A stretch of DNA of 9,129 nucleotides from a virus (Duplodnaviria; Heunggongvirae; Uroviricota; Caudoviricetes): the IMG/VR virus record IMGVR_UViG_2617270976_000006, one strand, 5' to 3'. Positions 3,744-9,129 of the stretch are shown one piece after another; the first letter of the stretch is position 1; the number at the start of each line of letters is the position of its first letter. The notes under the pieces were generated by a model. That model searched no databases. It was not told the origin of the DNA and saw only the letters and a list, made by a program, of their open reading frames with translations. A program made the position numbers and the translations under genes.

Positions 3744-4038
3744 ACAGGCTCGTGAGGCTCTGGATGCCTGGATATGTCGACCAGGAATGACACAGGAGCA
3801 GGCGACGATATTAATCACTGAAGCATTCTGGGCTTTGAAAGAGCGCCCGAACATCGATGTTCAGCGTGTCACATATGAAGGTGGCGCGATTGATCAGCGA
3901 GCGCTTGGCGTTAATCGAGTGAAGATATTTGAACGCTGGAAGGCTATCGACACCAGGGATAAGCGTGAAAAGTTCACGGCGCTAGTGCCTGCAATTATGG
4001 AGGCTATCAGAAATGATACAAAGATAATATGTCTTTAA
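3727..4038 (+). CDS. Hypothetical prophage protein downstream of dicC, in the positional slot of ydfX (103 aa)
   Basis: Track ORF overlapping the dicC 3' end by 17 nt; weak ribosome-binding site; no domain recognised. An internal Met at codon 21 (3787) is an alternative start. Confidence 0.55.
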   Translation: MKITPEQAREALDAWICRPGMTQEQATILITEAFWALKERPNIDVQRVTYEGGAIDQRALGVNRVKIFERWKAIDTRDKREKFTALVPAIMEAIRNDTKIICL

Positions 4039-4060
4039 AGAAAAGGCTGATGGCGAAAAG

Positions 4061-4077
4061 TGGCCCGATGAGGGCCA
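4061..4077 (-). terminator. Candidate flxA terminator hairpin, TGGCCC-GATGA-GGGCCA, followed on the minus strand by CTTTTCGCC
   Basis: GC-rich 6-bp stem between the convergent stops of the ydfX-like ORF (4038) and flxA (4093); partial U-tract only on the flxA strand. Confidence 0.3.
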
Positions 4078-4092
4078 CAATACGGCTGTCAC

Positions 4093-4425
4093 TTAGACGT
4101 AAATATCAATGGTGCCAGCGGTATTTGTATCGTCTTTTTTCTCTTCTTTTTTATCAGGCTGAACTGTCGCGTCTTCATTCTTTTTCTCTGCCTGCTGCCT
4201 TAACAACTGCTCCAGTTGAGCCCAGAGGCTTTCAATTTGCTTCTGTACCAATGCAGCCATTTCTTTTTTCTGCTGTGTCGTCATCCCCTCTTCCGATGAG
4301 ATTTTCCCAAGCTTTTCAGTCAGCACCTGAATTTGTCTTGTGATTTTGGCTATTTCTGATGTTCCTTCCGGGGCGGAGTTGTTTGAAATAACGGTTGAGG
4401 TATTTCCCTGAATTGTGACAGACAT
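4093..4425 (-). CDS. flxA: FlxA, FliA-regulated protein (110 aa)
   Basis: Track ORF translation MSVTIQGNTSTVISNNSAPEGTSEIAKITRQIQVLTEKLGK... matches remembered FlxA. AAGGAG Shine-Dalgarno 7 nt upstream. Confidence 0.95.
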   Translation of the reverse strand: MSVTIQGNTSTVISNNSAPEGTSEIAKITRQIQVLTEKLGKISSEEGMTTQQKKEMAALVQKQIESLWAQLEQLLRQQAEKKNEDATVQPDKKEEKKDDTNTAGTIDIYV

Positions 4426-4448
4426 AGATTTCTCCTTTTAAAAAAGCA

Positions 4449-4475
4449 CTATCGGCATGCACAAAAAAATCTTTA
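4449..4475 (-). promoter_or_regulatory. Sigma28 (FliA) promoter of flxA: TAAAGATT, 11-nt spacer, GCCGATAG
   Basis: Minus strand reads TAAAGATTTTTTTGTGCATGCCGATAG, a near-perfect match to the class III flagellar consensus TAAAGTTT-N11-GCCGATAA, about 25 nt upstream of the flxA ribosome-binding site. Confidence 0.75.
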
Positions 4476-4556
4476 ATCGTATTTCTTGTGTCATTAATTG
4501 TTTGATGTTCAGATTGTTTTCCTCGCGGGCTGGCGCGCCTCAGAAAGTAAAGCTTG

Positions 4557-4584
4557 TTGACAGGGGTAAACGTTCGGCAATAAT
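4557..4584 (+). promoter_or_regulatory. Orphan sigma70-like promoter: -35 TTGACA (4557..4562), 16-nt spacer, -10 AATAAT (4579..4584)
   Basis: Consensus -35 and 5/6 -10, reading toward relB about 370 nt away and antisense to ydfV. Followed by the palindrome CCGCATGCGG (4591..4600). Confidence 0.3.
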
Positions 4585-4627
4585 TTTCTGCCGCATGCGG
4601 GTGTTGCATAAAACGTGTTACGTTCCT

Positions 4628-4933
4628 TTATCGACAGGTCAGGTCACCGCTCACCCGCCGACGAGAAAGCAACACTGACATGCTAAAGCAAAAAATAGAT
4701 GAATAAGTTGAGTTGTGCATATGTAGCCTGACCGTCACAAAGTATATGGTGTCTGTACCAGTAAGATGATGGCCGGACTCTTTAAAAACGAGCTGACCTG
4801 CACAATACAGGATGGACTTAGCAATGGCTGCTCCTGGCACAAAGCGGACAGTGATCACCGTTCTTACGACTACTTTCTGACTTCCTTCGTGACTTGCCCT
4901 AAGCATGTTGTAGTGCGATACTTGTAATGACAT
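4628..4933 (-). CDS. ydfV: ydfV-position ORF (101 aa), doubtful as a real protein
   Basis: Track ORF of the length I recall for ydfV. It has no Shine-Dalgarno, and its start codon lies inside the relBE operator and promoter. Confidence 0.3.
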   Translation of the reverse strand: MSLQVSHYNMLRASHEGSQKVVVRTVITVRFVPGAAIAKSILYCAGQLVFKESGHHLTGTDTIYFVTVRLHMHNSTYSSIFCFSMSVLLSRRRVSGDLTCR

Positions 4934-4945
4934 TTGTAATTACAA
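4894..4945 (+). promoter_or_regulatory. relBE promoter (-35 TTGCCC 4894..4899, 17-nt spacer, -10 GATACT 4917..4922) and relO operator (TTGTAAT direct repeats; 12-bp palindrome TTGTAATTACAA at 4934..4945)
   Basis: Hexamers and repeats read directly, immediately upstream of the relB ribosome-binding site AGAGGTG. Matches the known RelB/RelBE autoregulatory operator architecture. Confidence 0.7.
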
Positions 4946-4957
4946 GAGGTGTAAGAC

Positions 4958-5197
4958 ATGGGTAGCATTAACCTGCGTATTGACGATGAACTTAAAGCGC
5001 GTTCTTACGCCGCGCTTGAAAAAATGGGTGTAACTCCTTCTGAAGCGCTTCGTCTCATGCTCGAGTATATCGCTGACAATGAACGCTTGCCGTTCAAACA
5101 GACACTCCTGAGTGATGAAGATGCTGAACTTGTGGAGATAGTGAAAGAACGGCTTCGTAATCCTAAGCCAGTACGTGTGACGCTGGATGAACTCTGA
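4958..5197 (+). CDS. relB: RelB antitoxin (79 aa)
   Basis: Translation MGSINLRIDDELKARSYAALEKMGVTPSEALRLMLEYIADNERLPFKQTLLSDEDAELVEIVKERLRNPKPVRVTLDEL. Its TGA stop overlaps the relE ATG. Confidence 0.97.
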   Translation: MGSINLRIDDELKARSYAALEKMGVTPSEALRLMLEYIADNERLPFKQTLLSDEDAELVEIVKERLRNPKPVRVTLDEL

Positions 5198-5484
5198 TGG
5201 CGTATTTTCTGGATTTTGACGAGCGGGCACTAAAGGAATGGCGAAAGCTGGGCTCGACGGTACGTGAACAGTTGAAAAAGAAGCTGGTTGAAGTACTTGA
5301 GTCACCCCGGATTGAAGCAAACAAGCTCCGTGGTATGCCTGATTGTTACAAGATTAAGCTCCGGTCTTCAGGCTATCGCCTTGTATACCAGGTTATAGAC
5401 GAGAAAGTTGTCGTTTTCGTGATTTCTGTTGGGAAAAGAGAACGCTCGGAAGTATATAGCGAGGCGGTCAAACGCATTCTCTGA
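5197..5484 (+). CDS. relE: RelE toxin, ribosome-dependent mRNA endonuclease (95 aa)
   Basis: Translation MAYFLDFDERALKEWRKLGSTVREQLKKKLVEVLESPRIEANKLRGMPDCYKIKLRSSGYRLVYQVIDEKVVVFVISVGKRERSEVYSEAVKRIL. Confidence 0.97.
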   Translation: MAYFLDFDERALKEWRKLGSTVREQLKKKLVEVLESPRIEANKLRGMPDCYKIKLRSSGYRLVYQVIDEKVVVFVISVGKRERSEVYSEAVKRIL

Positions 5485-5555
5485 ACCAAAGCATGACATC
5501 TCTGTCTCGCACCGAAGGTGACACTTCTGCTTTGCGTTGACAGGAGAAGCAGGCT

Positions 5556-5711
5556 ATGAAGCAGCAAAAGGCGATGTTAATCGCCCTGATCGTCATCTGT
5601 TTAACCGTCATAGTGACGGCACTGGTAACGAGGAAAGACCTCTGCGAGGTACGAATCCGAACCGGCCAGACGGAGGTCGCTGTCTTCACAGCTTACGAAC
5701 CTGAGGAGTAA
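5556..5711 (+). CDS. hokD: HokD (RelF), Hok-family small membrane toxin (51 aa)
   Basis: Manual translation MKQQKAMLIALIVICLTVIVTALVTRKDLCEVRIRTGQTEVAVFTAYEPEE. AGGAG Shine-Dalgarno 9 nt upstream. Too short for the ORF track. Confidence 0.9.
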   Translation: MKQQKAMLIALIVICLTVIVTALVTRKDLCEVRIRTGQTEVAVFTAYEPEE

Positions 5712-5779
5712 GAGACCCGGCGGGGGAGAAATCCCTCGCCACCTCTGATGTGGCAGGCATCCTCAACGCACCCGCACTT

Positions 5780-5810
5780 AACCCGCTTCGGCGGGTTTTT
5801 GTTTTTATTT
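5780..5810 (+). terminator. Intrinsic terminator of the relBE-hokD operon: 7-bp stem AACCCGC/GCGGGTT with UUCG tetraloop, then TTTTGTTTTTATTTT
   Basis: Hairpin and U-tract read directly, about 70 nt after the hokD stop. Confidence 0.8.
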
Positions 5811-5927
5811 TCAACGCGTTTGAAGTTCTGGACGGTGCCGGAATAGAATCAAAAATACTTAAGTAGCGCGCAGGGATAAGAGGGATGGTCCCTTAAAGGG
5901 GAGAGCTAATTATCCGGAAGGATTCTG

Positions 5928-6179
5928 ATGATGAACATCGAAGAACTGCGTAAAATTTTTTGTGAAGATGGCCTCTATGCTGTGTGCGTTGAAAATGGAA
6001 ATCTTGTTAGTCATTACCGCATTATGTGTTTGCGAAAGAATGGGGCTGCGTTAATTAATTTTGTGGATGCTCGGGTCACGGACGGATTTATCTTGCGCGA
6101 AGGTGAGTTTGTCACTTCATTACAGGCATTGAAAGAGATCGGAATAAAAGCTGGCTTTTCTGCTTTTTCAGGAGAATAA
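5928..6179 (+). CDS. rem: Rem, small prophage protein of unknown function (83 aa)
   Basis: Track ORF translation MMNIEELRKIFCEDGLYAVCVENGNLVSHYRIMCLRKNGAALINFVDARVTDGFILREGEFVTSLQALKEIGIKAGFSAFSGE. GGAAGGA ribosome-binding site 5 nt upstream. A possible promoter (TTGAAG, 18 nt, TAGAAT) lies at 5820..5849. Confidence 0.85.
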   Translation: MMNIEELRKIFCEDGLYAVCVENGNLVSHYRIMCLRKNGAALINFVDARVTDGFILREGEFVTSLQALKEIGIKAGFSAFSGE

Positions 6180-6245
6180 ACTCATCTACAATCTTGCGCG
6201 GGGCTGAACTCCCGCTGAGTAACACCGTGCCACCGGAGAAAACCG

Positions 6246-6524
6246 ATGGCACGCAACGCAAAATATTACAATTCTGATAATTCGCCCGTTCTTGCCTGCA
6301 CGCACGGGCGGTATTCTCACGCATTCAAGTCTGAATGGTTCCAGCACCCTCCATGCACTGCAGAACAGGCCGAATGGCTGATTCATTCTTACCGCAGGCG
6401 CGGGTTCGAGGTTAAGAAAGCTCTCAGTCTCGACTATCGGCACTGGATAATCTCTGTCAGGCTGCCTTATTCCGAACGCCCACCACGTGCGTCCCGCACT
6501 TTCCAGCAACGGATCTGGAGGTAA
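6246..6524 (+). CDS. Hypothetical basic protein (92 aa), immediately upstream of and probably coupled to ydfU
   Basis: Track ORF with GGAG ribosome-binding site 6 nt upstream. Its TAA stop (6522..6524) lies inside the GGAGGT Shine-Dalgarno of the ydfU GTG start (6526). No family recognised. Confidence 0.5.
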   Translation: MARNAKYYNSDNSPVLACTHGRYSHAFKSEWFQHPPCTAEQAEWLIHSYRRRGFEVKKALSLDYRHWIISVRLPYSERPPRASRTFQQRIWR

Positions 6525-6525
6525 C

Positions 6526-7575
6526 GTGCGGGTATTACTTAGACCTGTTCTGGTGCCTGAGCTTGGGCTGGTGGTCCTTAAGCCGGGCCGTGAATCCATA
6601 CAGATATTTCATAATCCTCGAGTGCTGGTGGAACTGGAACCAGAAAGCATGCGTAATCTGCCATCCGGAGTCGTTCCTGCCGTTCGCCAGCCGCTGGCGG
6701 AAGACAAAACATTGCTGCCGTTTTTTAGTAACGAACGGGTGATTCGTGCTGCTGGCGGCGTTGGCGCATTGTCCGACTGGCTATTACGTCATGTTACATC
6801 CTGCCAGTGGCCTAATGGCGATTACCATCACACTGAAACAGTCATTCACCGTTATGGTACCGGCGCAATGGTGTTGTGCTGGCACTGCGACAACCAACTG
6901 CGTGACCAGACATCGGAATCACTGGAGCTGCTTGCTCAACAAAATCTGACAGCATGGGTGATTGACGTCATCCGTCACGCAATAAGCGGTACGCAGGAGC
7001 GGGAATTATCTTTGGCTGAATTATCCTGGTGGGCGGTCTGCAATCAGGTGGTGGATGCACTACCTGAGGCTGTATCGCGTCGTTCGCTGGGATTACCAGC
7101 GGAAAAAATCTGCTCGGTGTACCGCGAAAGCGACATCGTACCGGGAGAGCAGACCGCCACCAGCATATTGAAACAACGCACAAAAAATCTTGCACCGTTG
7201 CCTTACGCCCACCAGCAACAAAAATCACCACAGGAAAAGACGGTGGTAAGCATCACCGTTGATCCAGAGTCTCCGGAATCTTTCATGAAGCTGCCTAAAC
7301 GTCGCCGCTGGGTTAAGGAGAAATACACACGTTGGGTTAAGACACAGCCGTGTGCTTGCTGCGGTATGCCAGCCGACGATCCGCATCATCTGATTGGTCA
7401 CGGGCAGGGCGGAATGGGAACAAAAGCACATGATCTCTTTGTGTTGCCTTTGTGCAGAAAGCATCACAACGAGCTGCATACGGATACAGTGGCATTTGAA
7501 GATAAGTATGGCTCCCAACTGGAGCTGATATTTCGTTTTATCGATCGCGCGCTGGCAATTGGCGTACTGGCGTAA
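6526..7575 (+). CDS. ydfU: YdfU, DUF968-type prophage protein with C-terminal Cys/His HNH-like motif (349 aa from the GTG start)
   Basis: Long track ORF 6487..7575. I prefer the GTG at 6526, which has a strong GGAGGT Shine-Dalgarno 4-5 nt upstream and gives the 349-aa length I recall. C-terminus reads PCACCGMPADDPHHLIGHGQGGMGTKAHDLFVLPLCRKHHNELH. Confidence 0.8.
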   Translation: MRVLLRPVLVPELGLVVLKPGRESIQIFHNPRVLVELEPESMRNLPSGVVPAVRQPLAEDKTLLPFFSNERVIRAAGGVGALSDWLLRHVTSCQWPNGDYHHTETVIHRYGTGAMVLCWHCDNQLRDQTSESLELLAQQNLTAWVIDVIRHAISGTQERELSLAELSWWAVCNQVVDALPEAVSRRSLGLPAEKICSVYRESDIVPGEQTATSILKQRTKNLAPLPYAHQQQKSPQEKTVVSITVDPESPESFMKLPKRRRWVKEKYTRWVKTQPCACCGMPADDPHHLIGHGQGGMGTKAHDLFVLPLCRKHHNELHTDTVAFEDKYGSQLELIFRFIDRALAIGVLA

Positions 7576-7588
7576 GTGGAGAACGAGC

Positions 7589-8341
7589 ATGAACCTTGAA
7601 GCCTTACCAAAATATTACTCCCCAAAATCTCCAAAATTGAGCGATGACGCTCCAGCGACAGGCACCGGTTGTTTAACAATTACGGATGTAATGGCAGCGC
7701 AGGGGATGGTGCAGTCGAAAGCACCACTTGGGTTGGCCTTATTTCTGGCAAAAGTTGGTGTTCAGGACCCTCAGTTTGCGATTGAAGGCCTGCTAAATTA
7801 CGCGATGGCACTGGATAACCCGACATTGAACAAATTGAGTGAAGAAATCCGGTTACAGATTATTCCTTACCTCGTGAGTTTTGCCTTTGCTGATTACTCC
7901 AGGTCTGCGGCAAGTAAGGCTCGCTGTGAGCATTGTTCAGGTACGGGATTTTATAATGTATTGCGCGAAGTGGTGAAACACTACAGACGCGGGGAATCTG
8001 TAATCAAGGAAGAATGGGTGAAGGAACTATGTCAGCATTGCCATGGTAAGGGCGAAGCCAGCACAGCGTGCAGAGGGTGTAAGGGTAAAGGGATTGTTCT
8101 GGATGAAAAAAGAACCCGGTTTCATGGCGTACCGGTATATAAGATTTGTGGGCGTTGTAATGGAAACCGGTTTAGTCGTTTACCGACCACGCTGGCACGA
8201 CGTCATGTCCAGAAGCTGGTACCAGACCTGACCGATTATCAGTGGTATAAGGGGTATGCGGACGTCATTGGTAAACTGGTAACAAAGTGCTGGCAGGAAG
8301 AAGCATACGCGGAAGCGCAATTGAGGAAGGTGACGAGATAA
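7589..8341 (+). CDS. quuQ: QuuQ, Q-like late-gene antiterminator (250 aa) with multiple CxxC zinc-binding motifs
   Basis: Translation MNLEALPKYYSPKSPKLSDDAPATGTG...AQLRKVTR. GGAG Shine-Dalgarno before the ATG at 7589. The track start at 7559 would overlap ydfU. Motifs CEHCSGTG, CQHCHGKG, CRGCKGKG and CGRCNG are present. Confidence 0.9.
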   Translation: MNLEALPKYYSPKSPKLSDDAPATGTGCLTITDVMAAQGMVQSKAPLGLALFLAKVGVQDPQFAIEGLLNYAMALDNPTLNKLSEEIRLQIIPYLVSFAFADYSRSAASKARCEHCSGTGFYNVLREVVKHYRRGESVIKEEWVKELCQHCHGKGEASTACRGCKGKGIVLDEKRTRFHGVPVYKICGRCNGNRFSRLPTTLARRHVQKLVPDLTDYQWYKGYADVIGKLVTKCWQEEAYAEAQLRKVTR

Positions 8342-8372
8342 ATGATTTTTGCTGAAGATGGCGACATGATGT

Positions 8373-8401
8373 TTGCATTTTTCAAAAAATATGGATAAAA
8401 T
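8373..8401 (+). promoter_or_regulatory. Candidate late promoter (PR' analogue, probable QuuQ target): -35 TTGCAT (8373..8378), 17-nt spacer, -10 TAAAAT (8396..8401)
   Basis: Good sigma70 hexamers about 30 nt after the quuQ stop, followed about 50 nt later by an intrinsic terminator. This is the lambdoid PR'/tR' arrangement. Confidence 0.45.
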
Positions 8402-8446
8402 TTTTTCAACGATGGGCTTTGTATACCCGACGTTAAGAAAAAGTAG

Positions 8447-8477
8447 AAAACCCGCTGATGAGCGGGTTTTGTGCTTT
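8447..8477 (+). terminator. Intrinsic terminator (tR' analogue): 10-bp stem AAAACCCGCT/AGCGGGTTTT, GATG loop, then GTGCTTT
   Basis: Hairpin read directly; the A-tract before and T-tract after suggest it could act in both directions. Confidence 0.6.
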
Positions 8478-8615
8478 AAATGGGGCAATGGTAATGTTGA
8501 ATCTCATCCCGGGACTCATGTCTGTTAACTTATTATTTAGCTGGTGACTTGGTTATTTGCCTGATGTTTAAAATGTTTTCTTCCAGTACAATGTCCCTAA
8601 ACACAATGAGTCTGC

Positions 8616-8638
8616 GGTAATGACTCCAACTTATTGAT
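8616..8638. repeat. IS1 terminal inverted repeat (insB-proximal end)
   Basis: GGTAATGACTCCAACTTATTGAT at the junction with prophage DNA. Confidence 0.85.
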
Positions 8639-9008
8639 AGTGTTTTATGTTCAGATAATGCCCGATGACTTTGTCATGCAGCTCCACCGATTTTGAGAAC
8701 GACAGCGACTTCCGTCCCAGCCGTGCCAGGTGCTGCCTCAGATTCAGGTTATGCCGCTCAATTCGCTGCGTATATCGCTTGCTGATTACGTGCAGCTTTC
8801 CCTTCAGGCGGGATTCATACAGCGGCCAGCCATCCGTCATCCATATCACCACGTCAAAGGGTGACAGCAGGCTCATAAGACGCCCCAGCGTCGCCATAGT
8901 GCGTTCACCGAATACGTGCGCAACAACCGTCTTCCGGAGACTGTCATACGCGTAAAACAGCCAGCGCTGGCGCGATTTAGCCCCGACATAGCCCCACTGT
9001 TCGTCCAT
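8631..9008 (-). CDS. insB: IS1 transposase InsB frame (normally expressed as an InsAB' frameshift fusion); ATG-delimited part shown
   Basis: Track ORF translation [125 protein letters not shown]. Confidence 0.9.
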
Positions 9009-9052
9009 TTCCGCGCAGACGATGACGTCACTGCCCGGCTGTATGCGCGAGG

Positions 9053-9127
9053 TTACCGACTGCGGCCTGAGTTTTTTAAGTGACGTAAAATCGTGTTGAG
9101 GCCAACGCCCATAATGCGGGCTGTTGC
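9053..9127 (-). CDS. insA: IS1 InsA, 3' fragment (N-terminus beyond the window end)
   Basis: Manual minus-strand translation [24 protein letters not shown] then stop at 9055..9053, matching the InsA C-terminus. Confidence 0.85.
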
Positions 9128-9129
9128 CC

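Follow-up and report, generated by a model that had tools for sequence, protein, structure and literature searches.

Qin prophage DNA runs up to one end of an IS1 element in the stretch of DNA analyzed here (9,129 nucleotides, hereafter "the window"), and the sequence stops inside that element, just beyond the gene and signals that are expected to control late transcription. The locus raises three questions: whether the late genes still lie on the far side of IS1, how the element came to be there, and whether it has anything to do with the defective state of the prophage. An initial annotation of the window, made from its letters alone, held that IS1 cuts off the late region and is a likely inactivating event that helped to make the prophage cryptic. 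The features that bear on these questions are collected in table 1.

Table 1. Features of the window around the Qin-IS1 junction (positions are those of the window)
Feature	Position	Strand	Basis and remarks
quuQ (ydfT), Q antiterminator of Qin, 250 aa	7589..8341	+	Translation identical to K-12; Pfam PF03589 Antiterm, E = 3.6e-54
pR'-like late promoter, TTTGCA + 18-nt spacer + TAAAAT	8372..8401	+	Consensus scan; putative function
TCAACGATGGG, putative initial transcribed segment	8406..8416	+	Invariant in three-way alignment of window, λ and SfV
Late-leader intrinsic terminator, tR' equivalent	8447..8477	+	Predicted; 10-bp GC-rich stem, GATG loop, U-rich tail
Qin DNA between terminator and IS1, 138 bp, non-coding	8478..8615		Composition; AT-rich (35–44% GC)
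TGAGTCTGC, left copy of the 9-bp target-site duplication expected if the insertion is simple	8607..8615		Direct sequence reading; left flank only
Partial IS1 (IS1A type)	8616..9129	-	IS1 nt 768 down to 255, right inverted repeat first; cut by contig end, not biologically
insB', C-terminal 165 codons, IS1 transposase DDE domain	8631..9128	-	Pfam PF03400 DDE_Tnp_IS1, E = 5.7e-78, full profile 1–131
IS1 programmed -1 frameshift motif TTAAAAAAC (A6C), between insA and insB'	9071..9079	-	Direct sequence reading

The IS1 element and the end of the contig

The right end of IS1 (GGTAATGAC...) begins at position 8616, where the first G of GGTAATGACTCCAACTTATTGATAGTG opens the right inverted repeat, and this terminal inverted repeat (GGTAATGACTCCAACTTATTGAT) is present precisely where colinearity with K-12 Qin ends. 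The 514 nucleotides from there to the end of the window show no mismatches to IS1A-family copies in ER2683 (a K-12 derivative), EC06, WP7-S17-ESBL-04 and several draft contigs. The match is not due to chance; the element itself is a standard one of the IS1A type, with no differences from known IS1A, and only its insertion site is new. The initial annotation had put an IS1 end next to prophage DNA at 8616, and its placement is exact to the base. It had also stated that the InsB-proximal end faces the late promoter, with the transposase genes antisense to late transcription, and this too is correct, the InsB reading frame being on the minus strand and Q and pR' on the plus strand. The A6C motif directs the programmed -1 frameshift of IS1, and an identical transposase carries the RefSeq annotation "programmed frameshift". 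Nucleotides 1–254 of IS1 (the left end and most of insA) lie outside the contig. Many BLAST matches that covered IS1 only began about 17 nucleotides to the left of 8616, as if the element were longer than the standard one; these extensions are chance similarities that were favored by ranking on coverage, and the flanks concerned are unrelated.

The window is the whole of a draft contig (JNQT01000087.1, 9129 bp, of assembly GCA_000704325.1). When the cut, 165-amino acid InsB fragment was looked up, it was found on 13 contigs that belong to four draft assemblies, and each of them ends in the same piece of IS1. One of these contigs is a second contig of GCA_000704325.1, which shares only the IS1 fragment with Qin loci, and whose flank encodes a protein that, read by eye, we take to be an autotransporter adhesin. 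Since IS1 is cut at the identical point in 13 contigs of four assemblies, the end of the window is a repeat-induced assembly break in a multi-copy IS1 and not a biological boundary. A contig that breaks in this way does not show the late region to be missing, so the statement that IS1 cuts it off loses its basis. The more general lesson is that a draft contig ending inside an IS element tells nothing about the DNA beyond.

The late control module upstream of IS1

The antiterminator encoded by quuQ is, by its sequence, a homologue of λ Q; in addition to the Pfam match in table 1, it matches the λ Q structures 7UBM (E = 4.6e-36) and 4MO1 (E = 1.1e-23). Beyond the gene, the hexamer TAAAAT is followed after 6 nucleotides by AACGATGGG, the same sequence and spacing as in the stretch after λ Q, which we take to be pR' with its pause-inducing element. 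The λ record annotates no promoter there, and the Qin hexamer aligns with TAAATT, presumably the λ pR' -10 region. The initial segment of λ pR' carries a sigma-70-dependent pause signal (AACGAT) that is used for Q loading. PMC12360218 describes such Q loading at a pause that is sigma-dependent and promoter-proximal. By these resemblances Qin appears to retain a λ-like pR' core that comprises the promoter and a putative pause element.

The predicted terminator that follows has the hairpin AAAACCCGCT-GATG-AGCGGGTTTT at 8447–8470 and then GTGCTTT, and an A-tract upstream of it makes it look bidirectional. The 84-nucleotide stretch that contains the hairpin (8402–8485) folds as RNA with z = -4.8 relative to shuffled sequences; a search of the whole window against Rfam at gathering thresholds gave no RNA families. 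In the SfV record the homologous position (107 nucleotides after Q) carries the label "putative rho-independent terminator", and similarity to SfV and to Stx2c phages stops at about 8470–8477. "Late terminator" thus seems a fair label for it, as the initial annotation had it, and the distance given there to IS1 (about 140 bp) compares with a measured spacer of 138 bp.

The insertion site

The 274 bp between the end of quuQ and IS1 (8342–8615) show 100% identity to K-12 and to numerous other E. coli, and there is no annotated feature beneath them. In K-12 the uninterrupted site has AATGAGTCTGC to the left of the insertion point and TTATTATATT (also given as TTATTATATTATTAGCAGAGC) to its right. 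The K-12 gene order to the right is a small ORF, cspF (on the minus strand), cspB, ynfU, essD, ydfR, rrrQ and rzpQ. The small ORF, which lies downstream of cspF, has 29 codons on the minus strand, and at the K-12 locus 3 bp separate its stop codon from the insertion point. The IS1 site is intergenic, and no annotated gene is disrupted; the initial annotation had supposed that comparison with the uninterrupted locus would show which gene had been hit, and it shows none. The nine bases that it singled out next to the junction do read TGAGTCTGC, which is the correct 9-mer for a target duplication test.

IS1 insertions near the site in other E. coli genomes

The Qin segment that precedes IS1 in the window (274 bp) is found unbroken in 1,411 complete E. 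coli genomes, that of K-12 among them. An IS1 in the same orientation, near enough to be joined to the Qin segment, is present in nine of 5,426 E. coli genomes, and the exact junction of the window in none of these 5,426 complete genomes. The exact left junction (Qin-IS1) also had no matches among GTDB representative genomes or JGI metagenome contigs, nor did the IS1 left end followed by 0–14 variable bases and TTATTATATTATTAGC in the same two collections. Mapped onto K-12, the cases resolve into seven independent IS1 events in the Q-cspF-cspB region (about 750 bp), a count that holds for the one orientation surveyed. Four of the seven are simple insertions with perfect 9-bp duplications: CEA106S, offset by 1 bp to the right from the site in the window (GAGTCTGCT); the STS63-2-E clade, 23 bp further on (GCAGAGCTA); Z1323CEC0012, in cspF (GACAATTCC); and EC06, in cspB (TATTTCTCC). 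The other three are deletions or rearrangements. In LR-03, where IS1 lies 67 bp left of the site in the window, a 4.56-kb deletion extends to the middle of gnsB; in SW07091, where it lies between cspF and cspB, a 7.76-kb deletion extends to pinQ; and LCP30S3_I3, also with IS1 between cspF and cspB, is rearranged between two IS1 copies.

The IS1 copies of the compared strains have 0–37 mismatches to the window's 514 nucleotides, and these, together with the differing SNPs in the flanks (of CEA106S, the one strain compared in this respect), indicate that the events are independent. We considered whether the window's junction is the CEA106S insertion after the loss of 1 bp, but this is less parsimonious, since the SNPs in both IS1 and the flank differ. 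In CEA106S, cspF, cspB and all of the lysis and late genes are intact right behind IS1.

The three insertions of the window, CEA106S and the STS63-2-E clade lie within 23 bp of one another in the same orientation (9266–9297 in the coordinates of the K-12 locus), and they directly flank a 14-nucleotide tract of pure A/T, TTATTATATTATTA. AT-rich targets are a known preference of IS1, which this cluster fits.

Simple insertion or adjacent deletion

Most likely, at a probability that we put at about 0.6, IS1 arrived by simple transposition and duplicated TGAGTCTGC; cspF, cspB and the essD-rrrQ-rzpQ lysis genes would then follow on another contig. This estimate derives from the 4:3 split among the comparable events and from the fact that the two nearest of them are both simple. 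A standard IS1A-type element would have landed in AT-rich, non-coding Qin DNA, 138 bp past the terminator of the Q-controlled late leader, and the insertion would be recent, private to this isolate and in a prophage that was already defective. The left end of IS1 (...GGCAGCATCACC) should then join TGAGTCTGCTTATTATATT; that is, the left end ...AGTAAGTTGGCAGCATCACC would be expected to be followed by TGAGTCTGC and then by TTATTATATTATTAGCAGAGC.

A less likely course, though a realistic one, is an IS1-mediated adjacent deletion or inversion, by which the DNA to the right of 8616 (cspF, cspB, the lysis genes and possibly more) was removed or relocated; there would be no target duplication, and the late region would be truly missing at the locus. 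Three of the seven nearby events are of this kind (LR-03 into gnsB, SW07091 into pinQ, and the rearranged LCP30S3_I3), and the window's Qin copy already has two other private deletions (below). Against it stand the four simple events, the two closest to the window's site among them, and the window itself, which has no sign of a deletion there and ends at an assembly break. Simple transposition is therefore the reading that we prefer.

A broader proposal can be made from the same events, namely that the roughly 750 bp from the late terminator to cspB are a recurrent IS1 target (with three insertions within 23 bp at TTATTATATTATTA) that has repeatedly seeded deletions of the lysis cassette, so that prophage domestication would follow a preferred route rather than random decay. 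We regard this as unlikely; if it were true, it would be a modest illustration of how the AT preference of IS1 can channel prophage decay.

IS1 and the defective state of Qin

IS elements are generally polar, and this one sits between Q/pR'/tR' and the lysis genes in the orientation given above, so one might suppose, with the initial annotation, that it is an inactivating event that helped to make the prophage cryptic, and that it blocks late transcription through polarity and its antisense transposase. We find this very improbable. Qin is defective and free of IS1 at this site in the 1,411 complete genomes mentioned above, and the insertion is private to one contig. Because Qin lacks the element in more than 1,400 complete genomes and the junction is found in none, IS1 is not the cause of the cryptic state; it did not make Qin cryptic but is a late, private event. 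As in K-12, the replication genes that fuller relatives carry after ydaT are already missing from the window's copy, and CEA106S keeps its full lysis cassette behind an IS1 that is only 1 bp away.

A polar block of late transcription is itself doubtful. A passage of PMC12360218, which cites Forbes & Herskowitz 1982, treats λ Q as a proven suppressor of polarity, and since QuuQ belongs to the λ Q family, IS1 need not block late transcription; by this analogy, an extrapolation from λ, the label "likely inactivating" is not sustained. The insertion probably has little functional consequence: RNA polymerase modified by Q would be expected to read through IS1, and on the other strand the element would merely part cspF and the small ORF from the terminator that they share. 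Its biological weight is small: it is one more IS1 in a defective prophage and interrupts no gene. In sum, this is a known, ordinary element at a new but unremarkable intergenic site.

Least probable of all is that the assembler created the Qin-IS1 junction as a chimera that the genome does not contain; the contig belongs to a fragmented draft, with IS1 as a collapsed repeat, but Qin passes into IS1 precisely at the inverted repeat's first base (a chimera is not expected to honor an element boundary to the base), Qin is colinear with K-12 until there, and the AT-rich site has independent IS1 insertions within 23 bp in two strains with complete genomes.

The Qin copy of the window and its strain

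Positions 4004–8615 are Qin DNA that is 99.9% identical to that of K-12 BW25113 (4 mismatches in 4612 nucleotides), and its FlxA, YdfV, RelB, RelE, HokD, Rem and QuuQ proteins do not differ from those of K-12. The initial annotation had concluded that the strain is not K-12, whose Qin it described as carrying IS2. This is borne out, since in K-12 an IS2 truncates ydfE, which is intact in the window, and the window carries a private form of YdfU as well as two private deletions. The ydfE exonuclease ORF occupies positions 1–2333 on the minus strand (778 amino acids called) and is cut by the start of the contig.

The first of the deletions, at 2874–2886, has removed 1035 bp relative to K-12 Qin, between the imperfect repeats TTAACGCCGGATA and TTAACGCTGGGGTA. 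It takes out ydfA, ydfB, ydfC and the gene for the DicF sRNA, and the DNA just upstream of ydfA now lies about 84 bp upstream of dicB. A 53-mer that we take to be DicF matches K-12 exactly within the stretch that was lost, and the window does not contain it. The second private junction, at 4004–4006, marks the loss of 530 bp of K-12 Qin, the stretch with ydfW that separates the ydfX/YdaT remnant from flxA. Neither the 1035-bp nor the 530-bp deletion junction occurs in one piece in any complete E. coli genome.

YdfU (DUF968; 6526–7575) differs from its K-12 counterpart by P37L, K40E and L209Q; L37 and E40 are present in none of four comparison strains, and by protein look-up the exact variant is on record only for contig JNQT01000087.1. 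Escherichia phage PhiR42_1 (PV340562.1; 48.7 kb, from ECOR13), which was deposited as a complete phage, is 100% identical at its positions 6001–7027 to positions 7589–8615 of the window. It has the gene order relBE-hokD-rem-ydfU-Q-cspF-cspB-lysis, as in Qin, with ydfU annotated as shorter (927 nucleotides) and a transposase upstream.

The suggestion that the IS1 marks an IS1-rich strain carries little weight, because IS1 is common in E. coli (with matches in 5,149 of 5,426 genomes, at a median of 10 places), the copy equals an IS1A-family copy of a K-12 derivative over its 514 nucleotides, and only two contigs of GCA_000704325.1 were seen to end in IS1.

Comparison with known systems

Over its 514 nucleotides the element is the same as IS1A-family copies of a K-12 derivative and of other strains, including the right inverted repeat, the InsB DDE domain and the A6C motif; it differs from the known copies in its insertion site, which is absent from the 5,426 complete E. 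coli genomes. The CEA106S insertion (NZ_CP166722.1) shares with it the intergenic site, the orientation and the IS1A family, and differs in a 1-bp offset (GAGTCTGCT versus the expected TGAGTCTGC), 2 SNPs in IS1 and 7 SNPs in 4.6 kb of Qin flank. Relative to K-12 Qin (quuQ - cspF - cspB - essD/rrrQ/rzpQ), the window is without the IS2 in ydfE and has IS1 after the late terminator. The late control region parallels the λ Q/pR'/tR' module in that Q is homologous, the -10 region and TCAACGATGGG are kept, and a predicted intrinsic terminator follows. On the other hand, the Qin leader is about 70 nucleotides long and that of λ 194, there are differences in the -35 region and in the putative Q-binding spacer, and Qin, unlike λ, has cold-shock "moron" genes between its terminator and lysis genes.
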